From Syncephalis fuscata S228 (lineage: Eukaryota > Fungi > Zoopagomycota): DNA of 64,000 nucleotides. The notes below the pieces were generated by a model. It searched no databases and was not told the DNA's origin. It saw only the letters and a list, made by a program, of their open reading frames with translations. The stretch spans positions 186,001-250,000 of the forward strand of contig JAHLTZ010000026.1 of assembly GCA_025786725.1 (NCBI GenBank), written 5' to 3'. Positions within the stretch are counted from its first letter, which is position 1, and each line of letters begins with the position of its first letter. A program made the translations under genes and the position numbers. Of this stretch, positions 967-62,907 are shown piece after piece.

Positions 967-1756
967 GATTAATTATAAACAGACAATGGAGAGGGATTTA
1001 ACTGTAATAAATTAATGGTATTAGAGGCGTGGCTGGGTGGATGTTTATATAAATGATTGTCCTATCGTTTGTATGAGTATAATGGTAACGAGCAAGCGTG
1101 GACTATTAGGTATAACAAACAATTAAGAACAAAGAGATAAGTGACGACAGGCGAGTAAAGGCAAATAGCCGACAATGGATATTAGTTGGTTAATTGGTTG
1201 GCTTTAACACATACACGGATGTGCAATACACTATAGTTACTGAACTAGCAGCACTAACCAGAGTAATCGAAATAATAGAGGATTGCTAAAACAAGGAAGA
1301 TGAAGAAAAAAGAATGAAGAAAGAAGACAGCATCAATAAATATGGAACTAAATGGAATGGCAACGAGAGTGGCATGCGGTTACATTGACAAAGGAAACTA
1401 CACTCAAGGATTTACATACTGGTGACACGAGCAAACAGGAATATGGATCCAACTTGAATTGTATCATGTTAACATGTGACAATGTCTGAACAGCTTTTAC
1501 TATCAAAACCTGTTTTGTTTAAACTGGTATTAGTCACCATAGTTTATTAAATAAAAACAATAAAAAAACAAGAAATAAGATATGGCTATAGCTAAAGTAT
1601 TAGATTGTGGAATGTAATTACTGCAAATGCAAGGTGTTAAGTATTTGAGTAAAAACATTTTTAAATTAATTACAATTATTTAGTGTGAACAAAACTGGAT
1701 AATTTATAATTACCAAATATGGTAATGCCTATTATTAATAATAGTATTTCTATTAT

Positions 1757-3954
1757 TAGTATCATATTTAATAAACAATTAACATATAAAGCTGACTATT
1801 TTATTAATCAAATAAACAAATTGCTATTTTTCCTATTCATTTGTAAATGTTAATTGTAATACTTTATGCATAATAGCTATGATTGTGATGTGGCTCCAGT
1901 GTCTTTATATTTCTAACAGCTATTACCATTATAAAGTGTAGCATTTTCTATTTATAATATCTATGGCCACCTTAAGTGCTTTCAATGTAATTAAGTGCTA
2001 AAATTACTGAAATGTAAGTTAAAAGCAATAGCAATAGTTAAATTAATAAAGCGCCACTATAATTATTTATGATTTTACGTATAACAAAGCAATTTGTCTG
2101 ATATTTTGCACATGTATACACATAACGTATAAATAGCTATTGGCAAAGTATGTCGTGATTGTATTGTGTGATGGTATAGTTATCATGATGATACGCTAAT
2201 AAATGTATAAAATAGCAGTTTTTACCGTTTATGACATATATACTTCAAATACAGCAAAATGATTTTCAGATTCGAGTTCTCTATGCTTGGATGAATCGTT
2301 TGGTATAAAATATGGAACAATTGTTGCTGTTTGATATTCTAGACAGGATTTTGTGAAAGTGTGCTAAGATATGTACCATGTAATTGGATAACCAGTTAAA
2401 ATTGCATGTGATCGATTACAAGAATAATATATCTATCAAATATTAGTATCGATTACTAGTAACAAACGTCTATTACGGCAATATGACGAGTAGCTACTTG
2501 TTAGTTGTGAGCATATGAGCAGTCACCTAAACTAGCATGCTGCGTTAATGATGAAATACTACAAATACTCAAGTTCTATTATTAGTTATATTTACTATAT
2601 AATGATAGCTTTATTCAATATCAATATAAATTGCTAGTTGCTAATTTTATTTTATTTCTAGTTACTGTCATACATGCTATTCAGTCTACTATAATTAAAT
2701 CATAATAATAAATTATAAATATAAGCAGTTTATTATCAAACAATATTAAGCAGCCAGAACATAATAGAAAAGACCCAGGTAGATTGAAATACACGAAATC
2801 TATGTAGCAAATTGCTGTCCAGCTTGTTTTTATAGCTACTGCTTGTTTACTACTTCAATCATGCTAAACTACATTTTACAATGGCCATGTAATGCTATTA
2901 TTCAATAAACAAATAGGCAATATCAAGCAGTAGTAGGCAGCTGAAACGATTGAGTCATAACATATCGTTGTTTTATTTAAACAAATATTAATTATTGGTA
3001 AAACTTGTTATTTATCATATTCAGTTAGTAGCAGGCTGTCAAGTGGATGTAGATATTCAGGGTACATGTTCAAATACCGCACTTTCTTAGTCGATTTACT
3101 TGCCCTTAGTTTATGCCAATTGTATCTCCATGCTATCTCTTCATTATTATTATCTTTTTTAAAGACATAAGCAGTATATAACTACAAGTAGTGGAAATAA
3201 ATTGTTTATTGACAGTTGTACTAAAGAATCGACAAAAATTGCTTGTTGCTATTGCCAGTAATGCGAAAAGTGTCTTGAATTTAGCGCCAATAGTATTGCC
3301 AGAGACTTGAACCATCCGTACCTGTCATAAATGTATTTATACCTAATGGTTGCACTGTCAATATTCTACTTATGCCATGTGCTCATTATTGATATTATAT
3401 GGCTTCTAGCAAGTGATGGTTCAATTAGCGATATTCAGCTATAAACAAAAATTAGCGCTGCATTCAATTGTGGATTCCTAATTCCAAATAGTAATCATGA
3501 TGATAACACTACTGTTTTGATATCGTAGTCATGCTGTTGTGTTGAAGTAATTAAAATATATTATATGACTAAACAGCATATCATATATGAATAGCCGCAA
3601 GAGTGATATACTGAACATCAATACCGATTACCAATAGAGTAACCACTAAGATAATATAGGTAATAAACATTTGTTAAATGTGGATATGAACAGTCAAATA
3701 AAACGATACGCTGCATTTAAAACAAAAAAAATGCAATTTATTTAGATTCTATCATTAGCTATATTTTCTATAAAAGAATAGCTTTATTCAATACTAATAA
3801 AAAGAGCTATTTCTAATTTCATCTTATCTTTTTAGTGTCATTCAGTTATTCACTTTATTATAGCTAAATTGTAATAAATAGCAACTAACGAGAAATAAGA
3901 TTAGTATAAAAAACAATATCAATCAATTAATACATTGTATTCTAAAGGTTAAAA
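1757..3954 (-). mobile_element. 2.2 kb dispersed repeat, copy 1; probable decayed non-LTR (LINE-like) retrotransposon relic
   Basis: About 98% identical to 59931-62123. The minus strand shows collinear, stop/frameshift-broken RT-like motifs: LGINT..YDR..W..LWQ (~3345-3295), GIN*GQV..LNIYI (~3120-3045), SCLLLLDIA (~2945-2915), IYLGLF (~2785-2768), LY..LEY (~2600-2560). The repeat itself is certain; the LINE origin is a by-eye reading. Confidence 0.6.
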
Positions 3955-4133
3955 TAGCGCTTTTAGTAAATATCAGAAATTAATGTTATAGGATAACACA
4001 GGATAAAATGTTGCTTGGTATATAAGCCACGATCTTTAAACCAAATCTATAAAAATGATTATAATTGCAAGTTATATTTATTATAAGAAATAATAATATG
4101 ATAGTATTATAATATCAGGAATAGAAAAGATGA

Positions 4134-5531
4134 TTACTTGTTATTATTGCCAGTCGATACAAATGCATGTTGTAATAGTATACTAGCAGCAGGACGACTC
4201 TCCGTATCTCTGTTATTATATTGTTATTGTAATTAATACAAATAAACAATTAAATCATTATATTAATACACTTACAGGCTAAATGTATCTTTAAGGAAAT
4301 CTTGTGCATCTTCAGATATGTTACGCGGTATTTCTGGTGATTCATCCGATCCAATCTATATTAATAAGTAGATTACATAGACTATAAGAACTTATCCTGA
4401 TTAGTGTCCATATTACTTACTTTGAAGATTGCTTGCATCTGTGCTAGATTAGGGAATGGATGATCACCAGTAAACATTTCAACAACAAGACAGCCAAGAC
4501 TCCTATAAATAATGATAATGATGATGATGATGATGATGATGATTGTTGTTATTATTATTATTAGCTACTAAATCATTATATAGTTATTCATTGATGTAAC
4601 AAACCATATATCAGCCTTGGGTGTATAGTGTTGTTTTTTTACTACTTCCGGTGCCATCCTATGTATAAATGACATGTAGAATTATCAAAATGATAATTAA
4701 TTATTTCATAATTACATCTATCATATTACTTACCAGAAAACTGAGCCTTGTAATGAAGCACGATGAGTAGCGTTGGTGTTCATCATCTCACCTATTGTTA
4801 TTAGCATTAGCATTAGCATTATTAAAACAAAAAATATAATAAGTAATATAAATCAATCTATTTCAACCATAAACTTACTTTCATCTCGTTTAGAAACACC
4901 AAAATCGGATATTTTAATCACACCACGATTATCAACTAGAATATTACCGCCCTTAATATCTCTATGAATGATGCCTTGCCCATGTAAATAGTCAAGTCCC
5001 AATAGAATTTGTCGTAGATATGATTTAACCAATGGTTCTTGGAATGGACCATAGTTTATAAGCATTGAAGCAACCGAGCCACCTGGTACATATTCAAGGA
5101 AAATGTTCAAATGCTGTTCATCTCGATGCGATCCTAAATAAATAATACATTAATAAATCGATAATATATTAATTAATTGTCGCATCATTTACCTAGATAG
5201 CGCACAATGTTTTCATGATCAAGATCCTTAAGTAAATCAATTTCTCGCTGTAATGCCTTCAACTAATGATTGATTTCATTAATTTCTATATATTATTGCA
5301 GTTATTCGTATTAGCAACTTGCCATCATTTCTCGTCGTTCATCTGATCCAGAACTATTTGGTAATTCCACTTGTTTTGCTGCCAATAGTTCACCAGTTAA
5401 TGGATTCAATCCCAAATAGACATGACCGAATGATCCTGTGCCAATCATTGAACCTTTAATCCATTGTGTAATGCCTTCTTCCTCTATTAATATTGTCATT
5501 ATTATTATCAATATTAGTTACTAATTAATTA

Positions 5532-5569
<38 letters not shown>

Positions 5570-6969
5570 ATAAGCTAATGACTTACTCTTTTGTTCTTCA
5601 ATGGCCATCACTTCTTGATTCATAAGCATTTCAGTAAATGTTTCCATCTCTTCTTCGTCTAGCTTCTCATCGACCATATCTTTAATATCCTCACGCGTTA
5701 AGCGTTTATCGGCCACAGTAGCCTCAGGCACGGGAATAAGTGCTGGCTTTGCCGTAGGTACAAGTGTGGCCGCATCAAGTTCGGGCGACATGGGCAATGG
5801 TTCATTTGGCATAATGTTGGGTGGTCCAACTTTGGCCGCTCGTAACATAGTGACCCGTTTCGCCTTACGATAAATAGTATGCCGAATACGATTCTCGGTG
5901 ACTGTTTCGAGCAATTCTTGCTGTTGATCAGGAAAGAATTCCGATAGATTATTTGAAATCATTTCAGATGCAGGTCGTTCACCAAAGAATGAACTTGTAC
6001 GGCTTGGTGAAACGGCCGGTTCAGGCGCCAACTGTTTTTGTGGTGCAGGCTTTCGTTTACCACCATCTTGCATACCACGTTGTCGCGAATGTTTCACGCG
6101 TAATACCAAACGATTCTTCTCTGGCCGATCAGTACTTCGACAAATATCCATTAATTCGTTATCGTGCAACATACGTGCCACTTGTATAAAAGTCAATTAT
6201 TTAATTATTATACATTGACCGCACCTACCATTACTCTCGCCTGTAGGAACAAATAGACGATATTTGGTTGTATCATCAAGATCAGGGTCAATATGGAATT
6301 TATGCAATACTTTTGTAAGAACTGCTTGTGCACCCATGGCATCGGTAACATTAACAACACACGTCTGATTACCCGGACCTGTCACACGAATTAAATTCTA
6401 CATATTATAAATATTGGCTTGTAAGTATAATTACTAAAATGCCACTTACTTGCTTCAAACGATCTGCTCCCCCTTTATCATTTCCAAACACCATATCATC
6501 ATGGTTGTTTGATGAATAGATAAGTGTATCACCGGCCATTTCATCCTATACAAATTATTCATATTTATAAGTAATCTATTATTAGACTGCTTTCATTTAC
6601 TATATATCTATATCTATATCTATAATATAAACTACTTACCTGTAATGCACGGCGTGTAGCATTGACACACGCTTGACGTAACTTCTTCAAAGCTACCATA
6701 ATCTTTACGCGTTCACCTACAGTTGGCACGTCTAGTTCTTTCAACAGCGTGTTATCCAACTCTACTAGCACTTGGCCATTAACGTCATTCTCTATTATTA
6801 GATGTACAGTTAATTAGTACTCATTAGTAGAGATGTTACCTACGCGACTATGTGACCGCTGTTCCCTCAACTTACCGAGAAATGTATCAGCATAATGGCC
6901 GAACTGGTTCTCGGTTAACCAGGCCACCACCTGCTGTTCAGACCAATTGCGAATATCGTAGTTAAGCAT
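4134..6969 (-). CDS. STE11: STE11/Byr2-type MAP kinase kinase kinase (SAM + Ras-association + kinase domains), multi-exon
   Basis: N-terminal SAM ([23 protein letters not shown]), RA-like region, [21 protein letters not shown] motif, kinase motifs [62 protein letters not shown]. Includes a GC-AG intron at 5263-5322. Confidence 0.93.
5532..5570. repeat. Compound (TA)n(TG)n microsatellite in an STE11 intron
   Basis: Directly visible. Confidence 0.85.
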
Positions 6970-10271: not shown

Positions 10272-10611
10272 TATAGATACTAGCGATATTAAATGAATGT
10301 AACGAATAGTCAGCTAACTATACTACTATGTGAAGTGTAGTAGCAATAGCTTTTAATTATTTATTTATTTACTAATCAAAACTAGAATGAGTCTAAAACT
10401 GACAATATTATTTAATAGTTTGTAGACACTATTGTAAATACATTTACATATTTGATTATAATAACAGTAATAAAATAAAACAATAATAACAATAGGAATA
10501 ACACACAGTTTACACAGTTGAATACAAAGATCAATTTCATTCAATGAAACGACGGTACGCATGTTGTCGTCATACTATCTGCACTCTTGCGACAAGATAC
10601 AAAAGAAAGGC

Positions 10612-12231
10612 TTATTTGAAGACCTTGGCATCGGCGAATTCCTTGCCAGCGAATTTGCCCTCCCAGGCAAATACATCGGCCAATTCTTCGCGGAACTTCT
10701 CATCAGCCAAGTTTTCAACCTTGGTGAAGGTGTAGGACTCAAAATCGGCAGCGTCGGTAACTTCTTCTGGGATTTCCTGGCCACGGATGACAAAGAAACC
10801 TTCGATCTCGTTGGCGTTATCTTGACCCAAAACGCATAGAGAACCGAAAGCGTACTTGCGAGCACGTTCCAAACGGCAAAGAAGCCACCGATCAAGTTGG
10901 AGGACATGAAGACCTTGGTCAACTCGTCGTTGTACTTGTAGACAACACGCCAGATGCTGTAGCCCTCAGCATCAAAGTGCTCCCAGAACCAGTTCATGGC
11001 AGTTGGCTTGGTGTCGTTGTTAGAGTAGACACGCTTCCACTCTTCCAAGTTAAGGGAAGTGGGTGGCAATAGCTCCAACTTGGACTTTGGCTTCTTGGCT
11101 GGCTCTTCGGCTTCGGCGGCGGCTGGAGCAGCAGCTGGCTTAGGGGCCTCCTCCTTCTTGGGTGGAGTGTACTTGGTCTCGACGTCACAGAAAACAACTT
11201 CGCCCAAAGCAGCCTTGAATTCTGGCTGAGCATACAAGGTGCTAACATAACGGTTCAAGTTCTTGTAGGCGACACGGTGTTCTGGAGCCAACACCATCTT
11301 GTAGGCAATGAACAAGGTGCAGGCAACAACAATATCGGCCAGCGTGATGTGTTCACCAACAAGGAAGGTCTTCTTAAGAAGGACCTTGTCCAAAATAGCC
11401 ATAGCGCTCTTGGTATCCTGGACAGCCTTGTTGTGGGTAGCCTTGTTGAATGGAAGGAAGCCTAGGATTGGGTAGACCCAGTTGCCAATGGATTGGTCAA
11501 AGTTGTTGGAGGTGAAGAACAACCACTGGACAACTTGAGCGGTCTCTTCGGCGTTGGTGCCCAAAAGTCTGCCGTTACCTTGGCTGGCAACTAATCAAAG
11601 TAATCAACACATTAGTATATGTCGCTATTAAAATAACACAGTAAATGTTATTAAATAGAGCACCATCAAATACATATTTTCAGATCGAATAAAAGTCCAC
11701 ACGGATAGTTACCTCTCGGACAGGGATAACTGATTAAAATAGGTTCTCATCATGTATATATTTGATGATGCTCTTTAAAATGGCTCCTCCTCTATTGTTT
11801 CTAACTACTCACCATAGTAGGCAATGGCGTTGCTTTCGAAGAGGTTCACCTTGTCGTTCTCAAAGGCTGGGACTTGACCGGTAGGGAACTTGGCAAGGAA
11901 GTCTGGGGTCTTGTTGGTCTTGCCAAACTCAAATTCAGGCTGAGCGATCTCAACGCCATTGTACTGGGCAGCAATGAGTGCCTTGGCGACCCGTGGGTTT
12001 TGTGGGTACGAGTGGACGGTCTAATAGCATAGAACATAAAGGTAAAAGGTTAGTATGGCTGTAGACGTATGTATATATGAATCTATCTATCTATCCATCT
12101 ATCCATCCATCTATACATATATACATATACATATATCTGTTCATACATTCATTCATCCATCTGTTCATCAAGCTATTGCTCGACATATACTAGTATTCAT
12201 CCATGCAATAGACACTTACGCCGAAAGTCAT
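10612..12231 (-). CDS. TEF4: Translation elongation factor eEF1B-gamma (GST-N, GST-C and EF1G domains); 2 introns; one 1-nt frameshift at ~10876
   Basis: [56 protein letters not shown](A)[11 protein letters not shown]; strongly biased codons. The frameshift is gccgt where gcccgt is needed. Confidence 0.95.
11676..11757 (-). ncRNA. snR38: Intronic box C/D snoRNA, snR38 homologue (guide for LSU rRNA Gm, yeast 25S G2815 equivalent)
   Basis: In intron 2 of eEF1B-gamma: box C ATGATGA (11753-11747), guide CAGTTATCCCTGT complementary to LSU rRNA ACAGGGAUAACUG, D' CCGA (11719-11716), box D CTGA (11683-11680), flanked by a ~20 bp stem (11774-11755 with 11676-11657). Yeast snR38 lies in the TEF4 intron. 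Confidence 0.9.
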
Positions 12232-12928
12232 GTTGGAGTGTTCTGGCAAGATGGGAAATACAACAAAGAGAACAACGATGCCAGATGGGAGTGGGGGAGT
12301 ATGACGATTATATCACCACTCAAAATCTTACATTTCACATCATCTACCCATGATAATTTTTACACCTATTTATAACACCATATTAAACGCAATTCATAAA
12401 TTACAAATTGTGCATAAACAACTGAATAAATATTGCCATAATACTAGCCCCATTTAACAGTTAAATATATTAAATGTTACTACTATGCTGTTGTAATTCT
12501 GGCTTTAAAGGGTGTTGCCTATATGACCAAGCAACACCTTATCCTGACACTATCCTATGTTGTTAACCTTTAACGTTTACTAAACTTATTTAGCGCTCAA
12601 AATACAATGTATTGGTTGGTTAATATTGCCTTTGATATTATTCTTATACCTTATTGGCATTAACTATCATATTTTCAGCTATATTGATATAAATAAATTT
12701 TATGAAACTAAAACATTAGCTTTTTACTGGTAGTGATTTAAGGTATTATTTTATAGAGTATGGCTAATGATAGAAATCGGACACTTTTATTATTTGTTTT
12801 TAAACTAAATTATTGGTTTATTTAAACAAGCATATGCTTGCAATTAACAAGGCAATATATTAATACGATATGAATATGTGTCGGCTATTCAAATATTTAT
12901 TTTAAAAGCGTTCTATTTATTTAATAAA

Positions 12929-14008
12929 TCAGGCTTGATTATTGTTAGCCATAAGCAATGTGTCTCGGGACGTGTCGTGGTAATTTGGTAAAGCATTGAT
13001 TTTATATAAAGCCTCATATTTTTTCATTACTTTCTCCTTCAATTTTTTTAGCCTTCCATTTTCGCTTACTTCATTGCCAGTTTTATGCTCGTCCATAAAC
13101 ACGTGAAGTTCAAAAATATTTGTTTCAACGATTTGTTTCATACGGTTGGTCATAATAACATCTGTAGGATCTTCAAAAGTTGAACCTTCAATATATGAAC
13201 CAAAGAATTTTTTAAACACAACGTGCTTCATATCATTGATACATAATACTAATAAAAATGAGTATATACTTAATAATCAATTTGTTTAACTCACCTGGAA
13301 TGCCAAGATACAGCAGGTTAATCTTTCTCAAGTCACGTACACCTAATTAAAATCAAGTTAGCGTTTAGTTGTTATATTGCACACGCTTACCATCAGCAAC
13401 TTGTTTTAGCACATTTTGCACTATTAGTATACGCTTACTGGCTTTCTCATTTTTTAAATAATGAGCAAAACTGTTAAACTGCATATCGCAACGAGTTAAA
13501 GTAACGTAACAGCTGTGGCGAGCAACAGAAATATAATCCACTAATCCAATAGTATACTTGCTGTCCTTTGTCCTTTGGCTATTCAATACACTAGATCTAT
13601 CGATAATATGCTAATATTATCATTAATAGTCGATTTATACATCCATGTCATACAAAATACCTTATATATTTTAATATCGTTAGGCCAATCATCTCTATCG
13701 TTGTTGGCGCATGTAATCATAACCTCTTGTTTTTTCCATGTTCCTTTAGCATACTGAATTCCTTCCTGGGAGTTCGATAGTTCTATATTTTTGATACCAT
13801 GTTCCCTGAATAGCTTGTTGCCATATATTGGGTGGTTAATATCTTAATAATATTCAAGTGAAATTAGTACAGTACATTTTTACATATTATAGTCAAACTT
13901 ACCAGGTTTTTTACTAAAAAGGCCAGGTGCAGCTATAGCGGTATGTGCTATTGACAAAAACACCATTGCACCAATAGCTGAAATAGCGGTAGATTTTAAA
14001 CCAAGCAT
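12929..14008 (-). CDS. Secreted kinase-fold protein lacking catalytic motifs (pseudokinase), copy A, 5 exons, ~290 aa
   Basis: Signal peptide MLGLKSTAISAIGAMVFLSIAHTAIA; then YAKGTWKKQEVMITC, DIKIYKHI, TIGLVDYISVARHSCYVTLTRCD, VLKQVADGVRDLRKINLLYLGIPVLCINDMKHVVFKKFFGSYI in kinase subdomain order. Four GT-AG introns give a continuous frame. Confidence 0.7.
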
Positions 14009-15256
14009 TGTTTCTAAACTTTCTGAGCTGGTTATTCAAAATGAAAAATTGTAATGGTGAGTAAAGCGGATTTTCTAGATAGTAAGTAAAAAGTAAACTA
14101 GTAAAGCAATCAGCAAAGCATATTTATTTATATATGATAATACCATACAACTTCCACATGGCTTTTACGCAATATATTCTTCCGACATTGTTTCAAAAAA
14201 GTTTGTTCAAATAAATGGCTAGAAAGATACAACTAAATCGATGAACTAAATCGTGCTTTTTATTTTCTAAATTTGTAAAGGGGTAGATTAGTGTTATTGA
14301 ATATGGAAGTTGAAACTCGATAGCGCGTGTTGTTTTATTGATTAAGATGTGACTTCCATGTGATCTATTCTCCCATCATTGTTTCAATTTTTTTGTTCAA
14401 ACAAATGATCAAAAATGCACCTAAACTGATAAATAAATGTAACCTTTTATCTTCTAAGTTTCAAATGATTAAATTAGTATTACTGAACATAAACTTTTTA
14501 TAACTTGAACACAGAATTTATAATTTGATAATGTATTGTTATGTTTCTAATTTTAGAAATCGCAACTTGGATGATCAAGCAACATCTTATGTTAGTGTTA
14601 TTGTACAATACTAACTTGCAATGCTTATTGACACTTAAATTGACGCTCAGAATACAATGCGTTGGTTTGTTAATATCACTTTTAATAATAAACTTTTTTA
14701 TTGATCATTAGTTATCACAGCTCAACTATAATAAGCTAAATAACTTTACAATATTAGTAAGATTACCATTATATAGTAAGCATAATTAATAATAGAGCTT
14801 GAATAATTTGTGCTAATTCATCATTGATGCAATGTATCGGTTCATGTAACTACTTATATGCTCGCAATTAACAAGCATTTACTAATTATGTTTTTGTAAT
14901 AGTTGTTTATTTGTTAGCAATTAGTGCTTATACCCGACATATGTGTTAATTTTGCTATCTATTATATGCGACTTTAGCTAAGCATTCAATCACATTGTGT
15001 ATTTATTAATTACACTATCATAGCAAATGACTATTATATTAAAGTTGTAACAATGCCTAGTGTATAATTAAGTATAAAAATTATGAAAAATACTCAGAAT
15101 AGCATTATTTGGTTATTGATAATCATAATCATAATAATATTACTATGCAAATTGGCAAATTAATATACCAGACTTAATTAATAGAATAGTTTATATCTAA
15201 TTTAGTTTTTATTGGATCAATATGCTATAAATATGTCAATTATTCAAATATTTATT

Positions 15257-16357
15257 TTAAAAAAATAATTGTACTGATTGGTTATAAACTTGATCGTTGC
15301 CAGCCATAAGCAATTTATTTTGGGGCGCGTAATGATAATTTGGTAAAATTTTGGTTTTATATAAATCATAATATGTCTTCATTACTTTCTCCTTCAAATT
15401 TCTTAGTCGCATATTCTCCATTACTTCATCGTTGGTTGTACGCTTATGCATAAACAAGTGAAGTTCAAAAACATTTAATTCAATAATCTGTTTCATACGA
15501 TCGGTCATAATAATATCTTCAGGATCCTCAGGATTTGAACCTTCAATGTAGGAGCCGAAGAATTGCTTAAACACAGCATGTTTTTTATCATTGATACATA
15601 TTGCTAATAGAAATAAATATAAACCTAATAATCTATTTGTTTAACTTACATGGAATGCCAAGATACAGCAGGTTAATCTTTCTCAAGTCACGTACACCTA
15701 ATTAAATCAATTAGCGTTTAGTTGTTATATTGCACACACTTACCATCAGCAACTTGTTTTAACACTTTTTGTACCATTGATATAGAATTACCAAATTTCT
15801 TATTTTTTAAATAAAAATAAAATTGCTAAACTGCATATCGCAACGAGTTAAAGTAACGTAACAACTGTGGCGAGCAACAGAAATATAATCCACTAATCCA
15901 ATAGTATACTTGCTGTCCTTTGTCCTTTGGCTATTCAATACACTAGATCTATCGATAATATGCTAATATTATCATTAATAGTGATTTATACATCCATGTC
16001 ATACAAAATACCTTATATATTTTAATATCATCAGACCAATCATCTCTATCGTTGTTGGCGCATGTAATCATGACCTCTTGTTTTTTCCATGTTCCTTTAG
16101 CATACTGAATTCCTTCCTGGGAGTTCGATAATTCTATATTTTCGATACCATGTTCCCTGAATAGCTTGTTGCCATATATTGGGTGGTTAATATCTTAATA
16201 ATATTCAAGTGAGATTAGTACAGTACATTTTACATATTATAGTCAAACTTACCAGGTTTTTTACTAAAAAGGCCAGGTGCAGCTATAGCGGTATGTGCTA
16301 TTGACAAAAACACCATTGCACCAATACTGAAATAACGGTAGATTTTAAACCAAGCAT
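15257..16357 (-). CDS. Secreted pseudokinase, tandem copy B (1-nt frameshift in a T run at ~15815)
   Basis: Same exon structure as 12929-14008; 5' part nearly identical, last exon diverged; frame restored by adding one T to a T5 run. Confidence 0.65.
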
Positions 16358-16868
16358 TGTTTCTAAACTTTCTGAGCTGGTTATTCAAAATGAAAAATTG
16401 TAATGGCGAGTAAAGCGGATTTTCTAGATAGTAAGTAAAAAGTAAACTAGTAAAGCAATCAGCAAAGCATATTTATTTATATATGATGGTACCATACAAC
16501 TTCCACATGGCTTTTACGCAATATATTCTTTTAACATCGCTTTAATCTTTTTTTGTTTAAATAAAAGACTAAAAAGGTGCAACTAAATTGATAGACTAAA
16601 TTGAGTTTTATTTTCTGAATTTGTAAATGGATAAGTTGAGATTACTGGATATAGAATTGGTAATTTGGTGGTTCATGTTGTTATTTTATTGGTTAAATCA
16701 TAATTATTTTTTAAATCGTTGATTGATTATTACGTCTGCTTTGAGTTTTATACGATAAAATAAATATATTATTGAATAAACTATCTATTAGCAATGAGCA
16801 ATAATCGCAGTTAAAGTTGATTTATTAATAATTCAGACATATTGATCTGCACACATTTACAGATTCGA

Positions 16869-19332: not shown

Positions 19333-22188
19333 ATGACGCCACGTGTTCCTGGTGAAGAAGCAGAGGATACACTCGCGACCGTATCCGCTAGTATTACGAC
19401 AACTACAACTGTAACGACGCCCAATTCGACTACGGGGCGTATTCTTTCACTAACACACTTTCTGCCTATCAATTGCGAATGGCATAAACCTTCAACGGAT
19501 ACACCAGTAGATGGTGCGGTTGACGAAGGTAAATGGCACTTTGGTCGACGTAGAGGACACTCGGCCATGTATGCCGGTATTACATCCTTGTCGTCCTCTG
19601 CACACCCACATTGGCATATTGGCGGGCTTGGTCGGCTACAAACCAATGATGGCGCCATGATACGCTCGTCAATGTTATCCGACCATCAAAAGACTACGCT
19701 TGTCAATGGTTTACGCGAACAGCACTCATCTGTACCGGTATTATTGGATGAAGAGGCCTCTTATGGGCATTATGAAGGCTATTGTAAAGGTGGTAAGTTG
19801 TAGTTATTAGTATTTATTAAAGTTATTTAATCTATCAATCAATAATAATGATAATAGAATTATGGCCTTATTCCATTATCTACCGCCCAACTCGTATAAC
19901 GATAGTAATCTTGCTCAGAGTAACTGGCAAAGTTACATGAATGTAAATCAAGCATTTACTGATGCTTTAGTGCAAGTGTATCGACCTGGTGATTTGAGTA
20001 AGTTTTAATAATAAGCCATCATTTAATAGTAGGATTACTAACGCAATTAACACAATTAACACAATTATAATAGTATGGATTCATGACTATCATTTACTAT
20101 TGGTACCTTCACTAATACGTAAATTGATTCCAAATGCTGCTATTGGATTCTTTCTTCATTCACCGTTTCCTTCATCGGAGATTTTCCGATCATTGCCACG
20201 TAAGTAGTTGTAATTGATCACTATTGTATGCTAACTATAATCAATGATTAGGTCGTAAACAAATTCTTGAGGGCGTACTTGGTGCTAATTTAATTGGTTT
20301 TCAGGTGTGGCTTTATAGTCTAACGACTAGCTATATGATTACTAATTAGCCATCTATTTATATTACAGACATATAGTTATGCACGGCATTTCATAAGCAG
20401 TTGTACACGTGTACTTGGTTTGGAATCAACGCCCACTGGTGTCGATTATCATGGCACACATGTAGCCATTAGTATATTCCCTATTGGTGTTGATGTTAAA
20501 CTTACAGAACATTATCGTCGATCAGCAGGCGTTTTAGAGAAAATTCAACGACTACGCGAGCTATATGCCGGTAAACGTATTATTGTAGGAAGAGATCGAT
20601 TGGATCCAGTTAAGGGGATTCTACATAAGTTAAATGCATTTGAAAAGTTTCTAGAGCGACATCCAAATGGCAAAATAATGTAGTTCTAGTACAGGTAACT
20701 ACACCCGGTCAAGTGGGTCTACCCAAACTAGAAAAGCAGATTGCTGAAGCTGTAGCCCGAATTAATGGTCGATTTGGATCGATTGAGTTCATTCCAGTGC
20801 ATCACTATCGCCAACAGATTGATCGAGATGAGTTCCTTGCTTTGCTATCTATTGCCGATGTTGCACTCATCACAAGTATTCGTGATGGCATGAATACAAC
20901 AAGTCATGAATATGTTATCTGTCAGCATAATGATGGACAAAACCCATTGATTCTTAGTGAATTTACAGGAACAGCAGGCAGTCTTAGTGCTGCCATACTT
21001 GTCAATCCATGGGACTATGTGGTAAGTATTATAAACATGTAGTATTGTAATTAATGAGCTATTACAATATACAGGGAGTGGCCGAAGCTATTCACGAGGC
21101 ACTTACACTGTCGCCAGAAGATAAACGAACAAAACATCAGCATTTGTACCAACATGTCACCACATATACTGCAGAGCATTGGGCACAGTCATTTATTCAG
21201 AGCTGCAAGCCAATCTACGCATACGTGGCCGTGGCAGTACTACACCGGCTCTAAATGCTACAACTATTTGTAATGCATTTAGTAGTGCCAAAAAGCGATT
21301 ATTAATGTTTGATTATGACGGTACATTAACGGCCATTCGTAAAACACCCAATGCTGCAGTGCCGCCGCCAGAAATGATTGAAGCATTAACACAACTGGCC
21401 ACTGATCCACAAAATATGGTGTGGGTAGTAAGTGGACGCGATCAACAAACATTAGAAACATGGCTGGGCTCAGTGCCCAATCTTGGTCTAAGTGCTGAAC
21501 ATGGATGTTTCCTCCGATCACCGGGCAGGAATGGATTAATCTATTGGAGAAAGACGATCTGTCATGGAAGAAAGAAGTAAGCGAGATTTTTGATTATTAT
21601 ACAGAGCGAACACAAGGCTCGTTTATTGAGCATAAATCAAGTTCGATTACTTGGCATTATCGACTTGCTGACCCGGCATTTGGTGAATTCCAAGCGAAGG
21701 AATGTCAAAATCATTTGGAAAATGCCGTTCTTTCAAAATTACCCGTTGAAATTCTTGTCGGTAAAAAGAACCTTGAAGTTAGGCCGGTGAGTATTAATAA
21801 AGGTGGTGTAGTGAGTCGCCTTATTGAAGCGGCCAACAATGAATGTGACTTTGTTATTTGTGCCGGTGACGATAAAACCGACGAGGATATGTTCCGCGCT
21901 ATTCAACGTAATTCCTACCTCGAGGATCCTTCCCGTGTATTTTGCATTACTATTGGCGGTGCCGCAAAGAAGACAGCCGCCGATTGGCATGTACCCTCAC
22001 CTGAACAATTGATTACGATACTTCGTCAGCTGGCTGAATTACCTGCGGCAAAACCCGGTTGGTATCAACACGATGGCGATGACCACGAAGAGAGGATAGT
22101 GAGACGACAACATCTAATGCTGCCGATGTTTAACAACAACAACAACAACCAGGCTAGTAAGACTATTTGGATACTTGATAATTGTTAA
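19333..22188 (+). CDS. TPS2: Trehalose-6-phosphate phosphatase/synthase-complex subunit (GT20 + HAD phosphatase), multi-exon, several 1-nt frameshifts
   Basis: WIHDYHLLLVP, GFFLHSPFPSSEIFR, GRDRLDPVKG, RDGMNTTSHEY, LILSEFTG, LMFDYDGTL, SAEHG, AGDDKTDEDMF. The extreme C-terminus is uncertain. Confidence 0.9.
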
Positions 22189-35487: not shown

Positions 35488-37717
35488 TTAAAACGGTGCA
35501 CTGAAATCATGTATAATTAGTCGTCGGTGCTTATCAATGACCGGTATATGAGTGGCACTTGAGTGAAGATCGCGAGAAACACCGTTTTCTTCAGTTGATA
35601 AATGGCGAATGGGCCGGCCTGTCTCGACATCTATTAAGAAGGCATGCCATCGATCACGGTGTCGATGATTGACGAGTACTAATGGGCCCACCACTACCAT
35701 AGTATGACGATAGGCAAGCGGTGCAAATCGATGAAGCGTATGACCATTACGAATGTCTATAATTACAGTTTGCTGTACACCTGATATAGCAGTGGCCGAA
35801 GAAGTAGTTGAAGTGGCCGAAGAAGAAAGATTTGAAGAAGAAGCAGGAGAAGCAGAAGAGGAGAAACAGAAGAAGTAGCAGAAACAGAGGCAAAATTAGT
35901 CGTAGCACATTGGTTGTTGATGTAGTTGCTGGTTGTGTATCAACGATGGACTCAATATACGTCTCTGTATTAGCAGTATTTGTAGTTGTAGTTGTAGCAT
36001 TATTCGGCCAAATAGATTGCATTACTGGATTGTTGGTAATCATTGTAGAATTTAATAAATTACTTAGTTCCACTATAGCGTTTGGTTGATATTGATGGTC
36101 ATTAGTATTAAATGCTGATAATGGAACAGAATCCGATGCAAATGCTAGTGTATGATAGGTAGATAGAACACTAAACATTGGATTGCCATCAGCAAATGGA
36201 TGAAGTTGTAGTGTAGATGGTACTGTTGCTGTAATTGTTGCAGCTGTCGTAGTAGCAGTAGTGGTGGTGGTGGCTGCAGCTGTTTCCATTGAAGGTGAGG
36301 ATAATGTTGATGATATTGATTCAAGATCAAGTAGTGTTGTTGATGATTCATTAACTAAATCTTCCGGCTCATAGGCATCTATCATTAATAGACCATGGCC
36401 CATAATAAGATTGCCTGGTGCATCTGCTGATCGTCGAATCCATTTCATTTTGTTATTACGTGTCGATAATACCATTTCCCATTTTGAGTTTTCTTGTACA
36501 GCAAGTGTATAAATACAATCATCTTCTGATTCTGCCATACGCATGGTCCAAATATAATCGATAGTGCCTATAATTGGTATTTTAATAACACCACGTCTTA
36601 TACAGGCAGGTGGCCTTTTAGATGCTTTATGATTGCTATAAAGTACCCATTGCTCCCAGGCTAGACTTTCATCTTCTTGGGCATCAACAAGAAATACCGA
36701 TACTTGAGTATCATCTATATGGCCTGTACCGCTTCGCGAATTGGGTTGGATGTGAATACAGCCAGCACGGGCCTCTAATAAAAGTACTGGTTCATTACGT
36801 GAATCCAAAGATAGATCATGGATGAAGAACAGATCTTTGGGACGTTGTCGCGATGAATCATTGCTGTTAAAATGGCTATTGTCGGCACTGGCAAAGAGTG
36901 ATTGAGTCGGTTCGTGACTTATACTTTTACCGTCGGCCATCCATAGCAGCCAACGTCCATATAGATCAACGATAATCGAGTCGTATCCTTGTGGTAGCTC
37001 CCAGTGACCAAGCAACTGTCCTCTAGGATCATCCCAGCGCCATACGCACATAACATCTTCGTCTGGATTGACTAGCATAGCGACCAGGACGACGTACTGA
37101 TCGTTGATGTGAACATAATGCGGCTTATTCACAAATGAATAGGGTGCCATACGAATTTGCTCGAATTTACCAAAGTGTAACTGCAAAGGAGTGGCATTAG
37201 GCCGATTTTCAACCAAGTACAAGGTATTTGTGCGGGACTGCATGTGACATAGCAGACAGCCGGCAGCCGATGCGGCCAATATAAGACCATGCCACCAATC
37301 GGTACGTTCTTCTTCGTTATCGTTGTCGCCGTCGTCGTATGATATACCGGGAAATGTGACCACATGACGTGTTGAATTGCCAGTACGCCAGTTCTTTTCG
37401 AGTAAATAGCGCCGATGGAAAAGATCAAGCCAGTTTATCTCGATTGCCGAAATAGTAGTTGCTTTGTCGATTGAGCAGCCGCGTTGACGAGAGAGCAGCC
37501 AAAGATATAGCTTGCACTCACGATCACAAGGTGGAAATGCCGAATGATAAAAGCGACGCCAAATGAATACGCCATTCTCGCGCGATAGCAGTGCATATAG
37601 CGTACGACAGGTACGTATCAGTCGTAAGGCTGTATGCCAGTCAAGACGACGCACAATATCATCACGCAGCTCGACCGGTAAAGTGATAAGTCGTGCTGTA
37701 GAGCCGTGTGCCGTCAT
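35488..37717 (-). CDS. Intronless F-box protein with divergent C-terminal (probably beta-rich) domain; frameshifts near 35900
   Basis: N-terminal F-box (LITLPVELRDDIVRRLDWHTALRLIRTCRTLY), WLDLFHRRYLLEKNWRTG linker; the frame continues into ORF 35488-35700 ending IIHDFSAPF. Confidence 0.8.
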
Positions 37718-38773
37718 TGGCAAGTAATATTTCTGTACAATGTGGTGATTTGTTTATAATGATTGTCGTTGATGTAAATGTTGTTAGTTTGGACTATTGA
37801 AGAAAAGAATATGCCGCTTAAAGGAGCTAGAAAGACAAGGTTGAAAGTGTATCAAATCAATGTGAGTGTATAAATTTTAGGACCGGTTTACTTGCCGCTA
37901 CCAAACGTGCGAACGCTCAAATGTGAAATGGCCGATGCAGTATTACTATGTGTTGTTTGTGCGTGTATTTAGTTCATAGGCCATATTCTGACCACTAATA
38001 CGTAACGATTACGAGTAATCCACATTATAGCTGGATACGGTGCTTATTAATACACAATAAATGAACTTTACTTTTATTATTATACTGGAAGGTATTGGTA
38101 AGCTATGAATTAGAAGTTATTTTTTAATTGTGTTGAGCATAAAACAATAGAAGCTTAAATGAACAGACAAAGAAAGTGTATAGATATTGGTAATACAGTA
38201 TAGTATGTGTACGACAAGGTGAATCCAATTGAAATGTGTAAAGAACATAACTAGTAGTAAATAGACGACTTTATCAATACAGTATGGATATTGTAGAGTA
38301 AATGAACAAAAGATAATACGCAAATTATAATAGCAAAGTTATAGCAATAAGATGAAAAGTGAAAATAAAGAATACAATGCGTTAGCATATAATAAATACA
38401 GTAGGCAATAAAAAGTAGCTTTTATTATCGCTATTATGTGCCCAGTATATAATAAAACGATGTATCCACACATCTCTCTATTTTTCTATTAGAATGGATA
38501 TACAATGAGAAAGTGTAAATAGTAGTGTTCAGTTTACAGCTTAATAAGTGATATGAGTTAAATTTATAATTAAATACTAATAAATCATACCTTCTTGGTA
38601 TTAAAAGTTAAATATAATTCTATGTTTCTGTATGCATATATTGTACTTCGCTTTCTAGTTGCACACTATTTCTCACATTGCTTGATTCTTGCTCAATTTA
38701 CTTGTTACTTTAATTAGAGCTGTAATAACTTGCATATAGGCTGTCTAGGCGCAGATATCCAGCTATCTACGCC

Positions 38774-41984: not shown

Positions 41985-44231
41985 TTAAATGTATCGACCG
42001 GGATGGGCTTCATACATTTCTCGAGAGGTAAGTACGGATATATTAGACATTCTAGAATTGTTTGATGTTGTATAATCCTGTGCAATTGTAGTGTTGGCAC
42101 TTGACGCCACTGGTAGTCCAGACCTTTGAACAGTGGTGTTTGCTACCGATACTGCTGTTGGAAACTTGCTGAATCTAATATTGGCAACGAGCTGACCTTC
42201 ATAGTTATTCAAGGCCTGCTCTTCAAGTTCCATAGCCTCAGCTGTTTCCTCCAGATGTGGTAGTTCAACAATACTTTGAAGAGCGCAATCGGGCTGATTA
42301 GAGAACGGATTTTCCGTGTTGATGGCAGATTCAGTGGCAGGTGCGTTAAGTGTAAAGTCGAATGGCTCTGTGGCCGACATAATAGGTTCCAATGGCCTGG
42401 CATTAATTGATTTGGCAATGGCAACAGACATTTCCTGCAAAGATTTGTTTGGTCCCACTGTCTGCTGTTTGGTAGTTTGGTAGCTTAAAAGCTCTTCACT
42501 TGAAATTTCATCAAATCTCTCGTTACATGTTTGTTCTTCGCGATTTTGCTTGCGCCAATTCTGACAAAATAAAATGCCAATTAATCCTTCCTGCTTCGAA
42601 GACTCATCGCTATCGGTTTGATCGCATAGTGTATCATCGTTGCTTAATGAGTACTCGCCAGTCTTGTTCAAATCATTGCTATCGCTAAATGATCCTATAC
42701 TTTTAATTGGATGCTTGTTGTTCATAAGCTGATGTACACTACGATTTGTTCCTAAGTATTTCTTGTTGGATGAATGATTTTCATTAAACTTTAGCTGATC
42801 CTTCGATGTATACGATTTGGCGTCCCATTTTGAATCATAAACTGCGCGCTTAGGTATTTTAACACCCAGTATACAAAGAATGGCAACAACTCGTACAAGT
42901 GAAATAGTATTACGGAAGAGCATCATGAAGTAGACAAACTTATAATAGGAAACAAGATCATTGGATTTACCTAGGATGATGTTTAAAAGTGCGTTGGCTA
43001 AAAATGATAAAAAGCCGATTAAAGAGAGAAGGAAAAGTTCCATGAATTTGTCGCGGACCATATGAAAGCGATACCAACCATAAGCAAATTTTATGGCCAG
43101 CAAAGCGAATATTGCGGCAATTGTAAATTCCATTACCTGAAGAATTATTGAGGCCACATAGTTGATTCTAGCAGTCTTTTGATTATCAGCGTATGTGTAC
43201 ATAAATCGAACAATTGCCCAAAAGATAACGTGGACAATGGCAAAAGCCAACGTTCCGTAACATTGGAGTTTGAGCAATAAAACGATTTTGCCTGGGTAAA
43301 ACTGATTTAGACGTTGAGCCCACAATAATAACATAAACAAAAATGCTATGGTGCTTAAAAGTGAAGTAATCTGCCACATAACAGTATTGAAAAATCCAGG
43401 ACCAAAAATAATTTGCGTATTCAAATACAAGACACCGGTCAATAAGCCAAGTGCGTAAATATAGACTTTTGATCCCAGTCTTAGTTTACCAGGTCGGAAA
43501 CGTAATAAAAACACGAGGCGGCCTAGCGTGTAAGTTATTACAATAACGCCAATGGAAAACAATATCCAGCAGTAAGCAATATATCCAGTGCTAAATAATA
43601 CGTCATTCCATAGACCTGGCTCATATCGAAAATTAAAAGTGATGGATATAGCTTGTGCAGTGTCCATTAGTTGCTTATAGCGTGCTCCATCGGCAACATT
43701 TATAAACGCAATGTCGATTTCTGGCGCTCCATCAGCTAATCGCCCATTTATAGATTCATATGGCAAATCATACGGACCAGCATTATTTGTTGGATCTAGA
43801 ATCATGAACATGATACGAAACGGCGGGAATACTCCTGATGGGACTGATTTCATAAAATCGGCAGCAGCGGCAGCAGCTTGGGTATATGTTTCGCAGCCAT
43901 TATGGTTAGCGTGTGTCCAGGTAACCATCATGCCCGAAGACTGGTAAAAGTTGGTGAGGTTTGATTGTTGCAAGCTTTCAAGAAGAGGCGGCGATACCGA
44001 CATAAATCGGCATTTGGACTCCATTGGCCATACTATGGTAACTCCACGAACTTCTTTATAGTGTGGAGCTGTTTGTAAAAAACCAACAGTATTAATATTG
44101 AGCGTGGGGCTTGTTTCGCTTGAATTTGCAGAATTAAACTGGAAAACAACATTGGCCGTCACATGGAAAGTCAATAAAGTAAAATAGAAAAAAACTGATG
44201 CTAGCCGACCAAGCGGCAATGTAAAATGCAT
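41985..44231 (-). CDS. Intronless 748 aa orphan receptor-like protein: signal peptide, ~190 aa ectodomain, seven hydrophobic helices, long polar C-tail
   Basis: One ORF; seven TM-length hydrophobic segments between YIAYCWILF and VVAILCILGV; ectodomain ends PEIDIAFINVADGARY (PA-domain-like, tentative). Confidence 0.75.
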   Translation of the reverse strand: MHFTLPLGRLASVFFYFTLLTFHVTANVVFQFNSANSSETSPTLNINTVGFLQTAPHYKEVRGVTIVWPMESKCRFMSVSPPLLESLQQSNLTNFYQSSGMMVTWTHANHNGCETYTQAAAAAADFMKSVPSGVFPPFRIMFMILDPTNNAGPYDLPYESINGRLADGAPEIDIAFINVADGARYKQLMDTAQAISITFNFRYEPGLWNDVLFSTGYIAYCWILFSIGVIVITYTLGRLVFLLRFRPGKLRLGSKVYIYALGLLTGVLYLNTQIIFGPGFFNTVMWQITSLLSTIAFLFMLLLWAQRLNQFYPGKIVLLLKLQCYGTLAFAIVHVIFWAIVRFMYTYADNQKTARINYVASIILQVMEFTIAAIFALLAIKFAYGWYRFHMVRDKFMELFLLSLIGFLSFLANALLNIILGKSNDLVSYYKFVYFMMLFRNTISLVRVVAILCILGVKIPKRAVYDSKWDAKSYTSKDQLKFNENHSSNKKYLGTNRSVHQLMNNKHPIKSIGSFSDSNDLNKTGEYSLSNDDTLCDQTDSDESSKQEGLIGILFCQNWRKQNREEQTCNERFDEISSEELLSYQTTKQQTVGPNKSLQEMSVAIAKSINARPLEPIMSATEPFDFTLNAPATESAINTENPFSNQPDCALQSIVELPHLEETAEAMELEEQALNNYEGQLVANIRFSKFPTAVSVANTTVQRSGLPVASSANTTIAQDYTTSNNSRMSNISVLTSREMYEAHPGRYI

Positions 44232-45462
44232 GGTATCAAGAAAATGGAATGAATAGTCGATGGTACCGTTTTCAAAATAAGCTAGCGATACAAATACTAT
44301 CCGTCAATGTGTAGATGCACGTATACACGTGTGGGTTGGGTTTGGGCCAGCTAGCTAGTGACACGTCCTTAACAAAGAAAGACAATCAATTTAGTAGAAA
44401 AAATACGGGTGCATCTGCCACTAAAATACTGGTAATATAGATAATTAATTATAAGCGTTCAACGCTTAAAGGCTGCAGGGACTTGATGCTGAAACCAGAT
44501 AACAAAGGAACTGCTTTCAGTTGGCAAATACGCGTCAATAACGAATATTAAAATCCAAAATGGAGTATATATGGTATAATGCTAGGCACAGTTATTGAGA
44601 AATAAAACTGATAATAACGGAAATGCGAGGAAATAAAAAATGCGAAAGATAGGGGATCAGGCCGATTAAAAGCCAACGATATACTTGCGAACGTTAGGCG
44701 TAGGGGACATCACGTGTAACGTTGGCGGACACTAAGCCTCGTTTTTCTATACAATGTAACAGAAGTGTCCGTAGAAAAAAGCACATTCTGCAGAGCTATA
44801 CGACAATCACAAGATGATACAATCGATTGGAACGGGGATCATTTACAAGGTGAGCGTAAGTTTAAACCATATAATTTCTATTGTATAAAGGACCTCGCGG
44901 CTCTTTTTCTCGACATATCGTCGATCGCGTACCATAGCCATTTGAATAATCAGTCAAATAAATAGCTATTTAAAGTCTTTATAAATATTGCGCTGTCCAC
45001 TTTTTTTGGTCGATCGTAGTCTGCAATAATTGACATCGTGTCTTTTTTCCCAAATAATGCCATATCCGTAAAGAATAGTCTCAGATGCACAGCTGGCATT
45101 TCAACATCTTAAGCAAAAAGCGCCTCATAGTATCTTATTGTTTTTCTTTTAACAGATAAGCACACTAGCGGCAGGTATACATATTAGTTGGTACTCATTG
45201 ATATGCATAAGCATAGGCTTGAGACAGACGGATCGTTTGTCCATATGGTCTGGCCTTGTCTTTTAAAACAACGTTTTGATTACAGCATAACTTGTTTATG
45301 CAATAATAGGTGTAGCTAAAATTATCATTGTTATAAACCAGACATTAAATGAATACCAGCGTTGATAATTAATAGCGGGGTACTAAATTATTAATAAAAA
45401 CCATTTTACTCTGAGTCCCCATCCTTAAACTGAAGGACAAAAATATTCATAACTCAAATAAG

Positions 45463-58996: not shown

Positions 58997-59930
58997 TGGA
59001 TGAGTAAATCAACTGAAATCGTTAGTTAATAGCCGTAAATAGAAATATCGTGAATTGTTAGACAAGATAGTAAGAATAAAGTAAATTGTTATTATATGGC
59101 GCGCGTGATAGTGGATGGTTTGTATTGTACATAGTTTAAGCAAAACCGTATGGTTTATATAGAACCAATGGTATCGATATTATTTCTGACTTATGAACAA
59201 CAATTCGGCTATTTGCAAGCAGGCCTTTTCATAGATGGTTTTACAGCGAGTAATTTTATGGCTCATTCTGAAAGGCCTTTATATCTATAAAAGAAAGGCC
59301 TGTCTTTACATAACAGTAGAATTACTCAGAGGTGTTTTGCCCGTTCGCATCAAACATTATAATCATGGCTAAACCTATATTATCTGTGCTATCCATAGTA
59401 ATAAACCTGTGTATGGCCCACATATATATCTTAAGCAGAGCTCTTATCAAATAAAAAAGGCATTACATAGCTTATAAAGCATGCGCTTATATTAAGTTTT
59501 AAGCAACGCATTCTAATATTCTGAGCTTTGTAACTTAAGTGTTTGGCTTAATAATTGTTGTATTGATATAGAAAGTATGTAAACCATTAGTAATGCTAAT
59601 AAAAATGGCATTCAAATGGTTTAGTTGCTTATCTGCTAAAACTAAAAAAATAATCCAATTGGCCTTAGCTAGAAAGGCTGTATAGTACACGCCTAAACCA
59701 CTATCTATTTATTATAATTATTTCGAACTTTGATTTCTACTTGACAAGCATTTCCATTACGCATCCAACAGATCGGTAAAAATTAATCATCAAGCCAAAT
59801 CAATAACAATAATTCAATAAATGTATTTATTTTATCAGGTAAATACTAATATGAACCATCACCTGTAAAAGCCATATAAATGATGACTATGCAAATCACC
59901 ATTACCATTGCAACCATCAAACACTAATAC

Positions 59931-62123: not shown

Positions 62124-62907
62124 AGGCATTAGCAAGTAGCAAAGATTAGTAGTATGTAATAGCACCAAGATCTTTAACCAAAATTACAAATAATGTATTT
62201 ACTGTTTCAATGATATAACTATCAGTATTTGATAGTGCAGATTTAGCACGCCAAAATCAAAATTTATTTGTAATGATTTGCTAACTAAATTAATCAACCA
62301 ATTATATAGATAAATACGTTACTTTATACACAACAGCAAACATACATAATTGATATCTTAATAAACTGAATAATATAACTATTTTGAATATGTGTTTAAT
62401 TCTACAGCATTTTTATTGTATTTCAGATACAGTTATAATACGATTCGCCATTAAAGAGACGCGCTATCATGAATATCATAGGATATTAATAGATAAGAGT
62501 ATATGTATATGTGTGAGTGAATGGATAAATAAATGTGCGTGCTTGGCACACACAACAAATGCGACTGTGCTTCAGGTGCTGAAAGAAAAATGCCATTGGC
62601 AAGAAATCTAGCTCAAATGAAAAGAACTAACTAAATGCGATGTGTTAATTATTAAATTGCTAGAATTAATTTTTGTTTCTGTTGTTGAAAAAAATAGAAT
62701 AAAGCAGAAACAACATTAAAAACAGTCGCGAGGAATCGAAAGCGAAGAAAAATGAAAAGACTAGAGAGAGAGCAGAAAAACGAATATGCAAATGATTTGA
62801 AAAAACAAGAAATTTCTAAAGTCTATTCAGTCATCCACCTCACACACTAATGACAGCATCAATATTATGCAAAATACCAAGAAAATAAAAAAGTATAAAA
62901 GAAAAGA

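Follow-up and report, generated by a model that had tools for sequence, protein, structure and literature searches.

The window analysed here, a stretch of 64,000 nucleotides (nt) from the zoopagalean fungus Syncephalis fuscata, contains a tandem pair of kinase-like genes (copies A and B) whose units lie approximately 2.35 kb apart. Their annotated products are both named "hypothetical protein" (P0001, BDF19DRAFT_415333, 291 amino acids; P0002, BDF19DRAFT_415334, 313 amino acids). They belong to a family of at least eight S. fuscata paralogues which, from structural models, almost certainly adopt the protein kinase fold, and which, from their catalytic residues, very likely lack canonical kinase activity. 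An earlier note on this DNA had described the pair as exported, catalytically dead kinase folds that a mycoparasite may use to bind or jam host signalling. The tandem pair is confirmed, while that interpretation as a whole is partly supported. The guess of a mycoparasite was apt: Syncephalis is described as a genus of obligate mycoparasites (PMC13188720, PMC6784888).

AlphaFold2 models were obtained for two family members, P0001 (built with eight sequences; mean predicted local distance difference test score, pLDDT, of 57.7) and P0003 (mean pLDDT 62.2). For P0001, ten-residue blocks score 55-83 over residues 41-200 and mostly below 50 beyond. Both models present their elements in kinase order, namely five N-lobe strands, alphaC, a hinge, alphaD, a long alphaE, three short strands (beta6-8) and two further helices, with the C-lobe after beta8 being of low confidence (approximately 65-70 ordered residues past the DFG position). 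The alphaC-beta4 loop holds an insert with a short low-confidence helix (residues 102-105 in P0001 and 112-115 in P0003). In Foldseek analysis against the PDB, each model had 500 or more matches at E<=0.001 (best E of 2.1e-6 for P0001 and 7.5e-8 for P0003); those listed are kinase domains by title, besides RNase L, TkArkI, a pre-40S chain and a few complexes, which we take to be kinase-fold proteins too. Among the best 50 rows of the VIA aligner, Z was 10.1-11.8 with a root-mean-square deviation (rmsd) of 5.3-7.3 for P0001 (best Z 11.8, rmsd 5.3 over 196 residues), and 10.9-12.5 with an rmsd of 4.0-5.4 for P0003 (best Z 12.5, rmsd 5.0 over 202 residues). The structural matches are tied and thus single out no parent kinase group. 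Atlas features pointed to kinase clusters at 0.92-0.94 (first match of P0003 at 0.94, 185 shared features) and were taken as a lead only. Because the fold searches of two separate models give kinase-fold entries throughout the listed rows, the kinase order of the family is beyond chance, and the kinase fold proposed in the earlier note is upheld by both search tools.

A profile of the family scored 23.75 against a Ste11-like kinase encoded in the same window, compared to 12.1 +/- 2.4 (maximum 22.87) for 60 shuffles. The signal is weak yet consistent. The gene in question (4250-6200) encodes a canonical Ste11-like mitogen-activated protein kinase kinase kinase, has a GC-AG intron (5322-5263) and also served as motif reference. 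Matches to the GCN4 coiled coil, to designed helices and to eS4 were rejected as helix-composition matches. A viral origin was likewise rejected: kinases of giant viruses and poxviruses were found in Atlas and BFVD with a best E of 4.9e-8, which is like the 7.5e-8 of cellular kinases and so gives no sign of transfer.

The family was delimited with phmmer, which gave eight matches at E<=0.001 among 1.84 billion representatives. Seven of these are S. fuscata hypothetical proteins (228-311 amino acids, on six contigs), and the eighth, P0008, is an unrelated repeat protein that was removed before all alignments. With the addition of P0002, which was kept out of the family alignments since frame breaks have left it with a mis-modelled start and exon 3, the family comprises at least eight members, six of them beyond A and B, so that the term used in the earlier note is justified; as the paralogues were counted from protein databases, eight is a lower bound. 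Pairwise identity among them is 16-29%. No relative outside S. fuscata was detected by phmmer at E<=0.001, although a single-sequence search at such divergence may miss those of other Zoopagales, and no microsporidian protein occurred among the eight matches. Word-indexed protein searches returned only the two window proteins, and a profile search recovered three of its eight own input sequences; both are uninformative on absence elsewhere. A metagenome scan gave 235 pattern matches, none of them a relative, and PHROGs held no named family for seven members.

Copy A lies on the minus strand (14008-12929) and consists of five exons whose 876-nt coding sequence gives a protein of 291 amino acids identical to P0001. 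This agrees with the spliced product of about 290 residues drawn in the earlier note, and the kinase-like peptides quoted there all occur in it in the order given. The four introns (60, 50, 48 and 46 nt) all possess GT..AG ends. The motif register was taken from SGK1 and EGFR, whose matches are below significance, and from the Ste11-like kinase of the window, all of which agree from alphaE to beta8. Exon 1 (13903..14008, minus strand like the others) carries the start codon and predicted signal peptide and lies outside the RNA contigs. Exon 2 (13661..13842), whose 3' part is covered by RNA with intron 2 spliced, encodes beta1-beta3, Cys80 and the start of alphaC. Like the rest of the family it has no GxGxxG Gly loop, and the inferred position of the beta3 Lys is held by Thr79 (Thr, Val or Ala in all seven aligned paralogues); the beta3 Ala position is variable. 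Exon 3 (13391..13610), flanked by introns that are both spliced in one contig, encodes alphaC, the insert, beta4, beta5 (Cys130), the hinge (Cys137), alphaD and the start of alphaE. The end of alphaE and a degenerate, shortened catalytic loop follow in exon 4 (13295..13342), where Tyr181, the H/Y of HRD in the aligned register, is retained and the Arg and Asp are lost. Exon 5 (12929..13248) encodes beta7 (Cys188), beta8 with Lys199 at the DFG-Asp position, two low-confidence C-lobe helices and the stop codon.

In comparison to the six residues of a kinase catalytic loop, copy A has four (the loop is two short in A and B) and the other members five. No Asp of the loop is conserved, its Asn position is Val186 in copy A, and neither loop nor DFG position of this copy has an acidic residue. 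At the DFG-Asp position the paralogues have Gly, Tyr, Ala, Gly, Ile and Phe, with P0005 possessing an Asp one column later. The family has thus lost the Gly loop together with the beta3 Lys, the HRD Asp and the DFG Asp; for the Lys, HRD and DFG this agrees with the earlier note. The gatekeeper position is a conserved Ser/Thr in six of the seven. Only seven columns are invariant among the seven paralogues (the start Met, Ala67, Tyr181, Cys80, Cys130, Cys137 and Cys188), with no invariant Asp, Glu, Lys, Arg, His or Asn and hence no invariant charged residue. Binding of adenosine triphosphate (ATP) by these proteins appears unlikely, since, besides these losses, the beta2 Val that caps the adenine is replaced by Tyr or Phe in 7/7. 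By the definitions of PMC8141879 they are predicted to be class I pseudokinases.

The four invariant cysteines, which make up four of the seven invariant columns, are the only cysteines of P0001 and were overlooked in the earlier note. In kinase topology, beta3 and beta5 are neighbouring strands and the hinge lies near the beta7 residue beneath the adenine ring. Given this topology, Cys80 (beta3) would pair with Cys130 (beta5) and Cys137 (hinge) with Cys188 (beta7); two such disulfides are considered probable from the strand register, the latter at the floor of the former ATP site. The likely disulfides favour work outside a cytosol, and a protein held in this way would be no less at home at an extracellular interface than in the cytosol of the host. 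Rhoptry kinases, however, are described as keeping their cysteine pair even when acting inside host cells (PMC3682881).

Secretion of the family proteins is quite likely. Copy A has hydrophobic residues at 8-18, with cleavage predicted after residue 26 or 27. An N-terminal hydrophobic stretch within residues 6-19 is found in all seven well-modelled members, with none of membrane length later, and small-residue cleavage sites after the N-terminal helix also fit in 7/7. The signal peptide predicted in the earlier note is accordingly supported by hydropathy and by its conservation in these seven paralogues alone.

Transcript evidence was drawn from assembled contigs of two RNA runs (X1 and X2) that come without a library record naming them as RNA; contig depth cannot rank expression. 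A 351-nt contig of X1 (depth 2.4) lacks introns 2 and 3 of copy A, with joints exactly as predicted, and a 151-nt contig (13145-13295) passes unspliced through intron 4; intron 1 lies beyond the reach of the contigs. The exon joining on which the earlier note had staked its model is therefore exact in RNA at introns 2 and 3, whereas intron 4 is retained in one contig. That contig represents pre-mRNA, retention or DNA; retention would shorten the protein. Intron 4 was accepted on the basis of GT..AG ends conserved in both copies, paralogue alignment across the intron and selection in exon 5. No contig of X2 lies on copy A, and those of X1 and X2 match nothing on copy B, which is uninformative on its expression.

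Copy B (15257..16357, minus strand) also consists of five exons (16357-16253, 16193-16012, 15962-15744, 15697-15650 and 15603-15257) separated by the same four GT..AG introns. As assembled, it has two one-base frame breaks with respect to A, at codons 11 (near 16327) and 145 (near 15818). These escaped the earlier note, and the annotation of P0002 bypasses them by starting at the wrong place and trimming exon 3. Six indels distinguish the copies from exon 1 to intron 3, and in each of them B lacks a single base. When copy B is read with X at the breaks, codons 1-285 contain zero stops. The ratio of nonsynonymous to synonymous substitution (dN/dS) between the copies is 0.40 in exon 5 (dS 0.54) and 0.52 over codons 141-288 (Fisher p=0.010), which, as far as substitution patterns can tell, shows exon 5 of copy B to be under purifying selection. 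The frame breaks are probably assembly errors, since a neighbouring gene, EF1-gamma, has a like defect that is corrected by RNA, and since the last exon of B is under such selection. EF1-gamma (10575-12245), an adjoining housekeeping gene, has its one-base break near 10874, where the frame switches seamlessly (Pfam positions 1-73, then 72-107); both RNA runs restore the base, so the assembly carries indel errors. Three more seamless switches were seen among 15 open reading frames (ORFs) chosen for scanning. A trehalose-phosphate synthase/phosphatase gene (20339-22188) has two, probably assembly errors, and a PA/fn3 subtilase of secreted type (56376-59008), spread over five overlapping ORFs, has at least one, again probably an assembly error.

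Amino acid identity between A and B is patchy, at 97% over codons 1-140, 54% over 141-165, 100% over 166-185 and 64% over 186-288. The region upstream of A (14009..14345, minus strand) is duplicated upstream of B (16358-16696), with 97-100% identity in the approximately 160 nt nearest the start. Taken with the dN/dS of 0.40 in the last block, this patchiness fits an older duplication maintained under purifying selection, with recent gene conversion across the promoter and the 5' half; a mosaic introduced during assembly may be an alternative source of it.

As to function, the family proteins may be non-enzymatic modules, held by disulfides, that bind host molecules where parasite and host meet. 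We put this reading a little short of an even chance, a host-directed role as such being about evenly balanced. The predicted signal peptide would lead to export through the endoplasmic reticulum (ER), and the exported kinase fold would be without phosphotransfer and likely without ATP binding. Its two disulfides would keep the scaffold rigid while leaving the surface free to vary, and this variable surface could bind wall, membrane or signalling proteins of the host as decoy or competitor at the haustorial interface. Tandem duplication and patchy gene conversion would diversify the set. Action as decoy or competitor has been reviewed for pseudokinases (PMC8141879). A bolder form of the proposal holds that Syncephalis independently evolved a ROP5-like arsenal, in which secreted kinase folds with an ATP site filled and stapled by two disulfides are released from the haustorium as hypervariable decoys for host kinase-pathway or recognition proteins; this is put forward tentatively and is rather unlikely.

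Several points weigh against the interpretation of the family as secreted, dead kinase folds aimed at the host. No Pfam kinase family was detected in nine proteins, and sequence matches to kinases are not significant alone (best E 0.027). The models are mediocre, with predicted template modelling scores of 0.53 and 0.55, a P0001 C-lobe mostly below 50 and rmsd values of 4-7 A. The beta3 register and both cysteine pairings are our reading of model strands and residue pattern and not of a significant alignment or of coordinates. An Asp occurs somewhere in the catalytic loop of three of the seven paralogues, and at the loop Asn position two keep the Asn and one has an Asp, so residual chemistry may persist in some family members. 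The hydropathy test is crude, as the unrelated P0008 also scores 2.17, and secretion, host contact and target are all inferred. Finally, RNA on copy A amounts to three short contigs of one run, one of which retains intron 4, and the spliced contig has one extra base at 13729 (in a T run). This base was rejected as a read error, as the paralogues align in the frame of the window on both sides.

A signal peptide, likely disulfides, lost catalysis and family expansion would fit equally well if these folds served the parasite itself, as components of the spore or hyphal wall, adhesins or self-recognition proteins, and disulfides suit an oxidising, extracellular site of this kind. No membrane anchor follows the signal peptide, however, and the identities of 16-29%, the restriction to one species at E<=0.001 and the mosaic tandem copies are more typical of host-interaction genes, among which fast divergence, lineage restriction and such mosaics are common features. 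A role for the parasite's own wall or recognition is thus regarded as unlikely, although a serious contender; it is solely this general pattern of fast, lineage-restricted, tandem expansion that separates it from host binding.

FAM20A and FAM69/DIPK regulate lumenal kinases in animals, and the S. fuscata proteins could similarly reside in the lumen of the ER or Golgi, possibly held by a signal anchor, and control one of the parasite's own active lumenal kinases. A cysteine-rich kinase fold behind an N-terminal hydrophobic helix (model residues 6-23) is in keeping with this, as is a sub-threshold match to PIP49_C, the FAM69 kinase domain, on the exon 3 ORF (E=0.052). Yet this match reaches 13.6 bits against a cut-off of 25.2 and disappears for all full proteins, small-residue cleavage sites follow the helix, there is no C-terminal KDEL/HDEL, and fast divergence with species-level expansion is unlike housekeeping lumenal regulators, all of which makes such a residence improbable. 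Pseudokinases that AMPylate or glutamylate are referenced in PMC8141879, and the retained kinase fold, the Asp or Asn in some catalytic loops and the gatekeeper Ser/Thr in 6/7 would allow for enzymes that use the fold for another transfer reaction. This is quite improbable, as none of the invariant columns is Asp, Glu, Lys, Arg, His or Asn and copy A is without an acidic residue at the loop or DFG position. That the genes are decaying duplicates without present function, copy B being a true pseudogene, is very improbable: B carries two frame breaks and is matched by no RNA contig, and A has scant RNA cover with intron 4 retained in one contig, but B has no stop in codons 1-285 despite a dS of 0.54 in exon 5, dN/dS is below 1, the 6/6 indels are one-base losses in B in an assembly with an RNA-corrected break in EF1-gamma and three more seamless switches in conserved genes, and the cysteines are invariant at 16-29% identity.

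Dispersed AT-rich repeats of approximately 300-500 nt accompany the gene pair, one copy being located downstream of copy A (12502..12852) and another downstream of copy B, between the two genes (14530..15049). Further copies are found at 2331-2640, 3510-4042, 60522-60786 and 61681-62170, and RNA contigs from other loci match the repeat with loose ends. It is possibly a non-autonomous element that seeded the duplication of the kinase-like gene. An AT-rich segment of 2.2 kb is present twice in the window (1750-3954 and 59924-62123; 98% identity, 58 kb apart); it contains two copies of the dispersed repeat and no ORF above approximately 70 amino acids. Another candidate secreted protein is encoded by an intronless ORF at 355-972, with an N-terminal hydrophobic stretch and a ricin-type beta-trefoil lectin domain. 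An intronless ORF of 772 codons (41985-44303) with several hydrophobic segments, a long polar tail and no Pfam match looks like an orphan multi-pass receptor. A long ORF at 35747-37753 opens with an F-box-like motif recognised by eye and has no Pfam match at E<=0.01.

Little is known of the means by which biotrophic mycoparasites control the fungi they live on, and a family of predicted secreted pseudokinases that is invisible to Pfam offers small, concrete candidates for expression and pull-down. Cysteines arranged like these about the ATP site would represent a structurally distinct route to the retirement of a kinase. In the literature available in part, no effector family for Zoopagales and no description of the S. 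fuscata family was found, though the genome paper or its supplements could list the genes as predicted secreted; the word "kinase" is absent from the available portion of PMC13188720.

Among known systems, FAM69/DIPK and FAM20 also place a kinase fold with conserved cysteines in an oxidising compartment, and one S. fuscata exon gives the weak PIP49_C match. However, these are slowly evolving lumenal proteins of animals, and that match is below its cut-off and lost on the full protein. Microsporidia, which are fungus-related parasites, possess large paralogous families with signal peptides, and expanded kinase families occur among the predicted host-exposed proteins of two species (PMC5423893); their kinases are recognisable by Pfam, whereas the S. 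fuscata family is not. Class I pseudokinases, such as TRIB1, bind neither nucleotide nor metal and have lost the Gly loop, VAIK Lys, HRD Asp and DFG Asp (PMC8141879), as has the present family. They are cytosolic, in contrast to the predicted secreted, cysteine-held, short C-lobe proteins described here.

The earlier note had pointed to Toxoplasma ROP5, and this comparison stands as an analogy in design and not as family membership. Coccidia have expanded families of secreted kinases and pseudokinases, and their rhoptry kinases (ROPK; ROP2, ROP5, ROP8) resemble the S. fuscata proteins in being lineage-specific parasite kinase folds that include pseudokinases and occur in tandem repeats (PMC3682881). 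They also have a signal peptide and a disulfide specific to the family (PMC3682881), both of which are predicted for S. fuscata. A Toxoplasma rhoptry kinase domain (3byv) ranks 16th among the Foldseek matches listed for P0003, as one of many. The S. fuscata family is fungal, is neither coccidian nor of the rhoptry, and has no N-terminal extension. The ROPK cysteines lie in a WC motif at the end of alphaF and in a partner within the alphaG-alphaH insert (PMC3682881), whereas those of S. fuscata are in beta3, beta5, the hinge and beta7; the WC motif and partner Cys are absent, P0001 having no Cys after residue 188. The ROPK alphaC' insert is located in the alphaC-beta4 loop, and the S. fuscata insert is comparable to it by place alone. 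Approximately half of the ROPK subfamilies are active, while all seven aligned S. fuscata members look dead. The effector role of ROPK is demonstrated, and that of the S. fuscata proteins is hypothetical. Should the latter be host-directed, an unrelated parasite would have converged on the rhoptry pseudokinases of apicomplexans, and the proteins bound would give a lead to defence signalling in early-diverging fungi.

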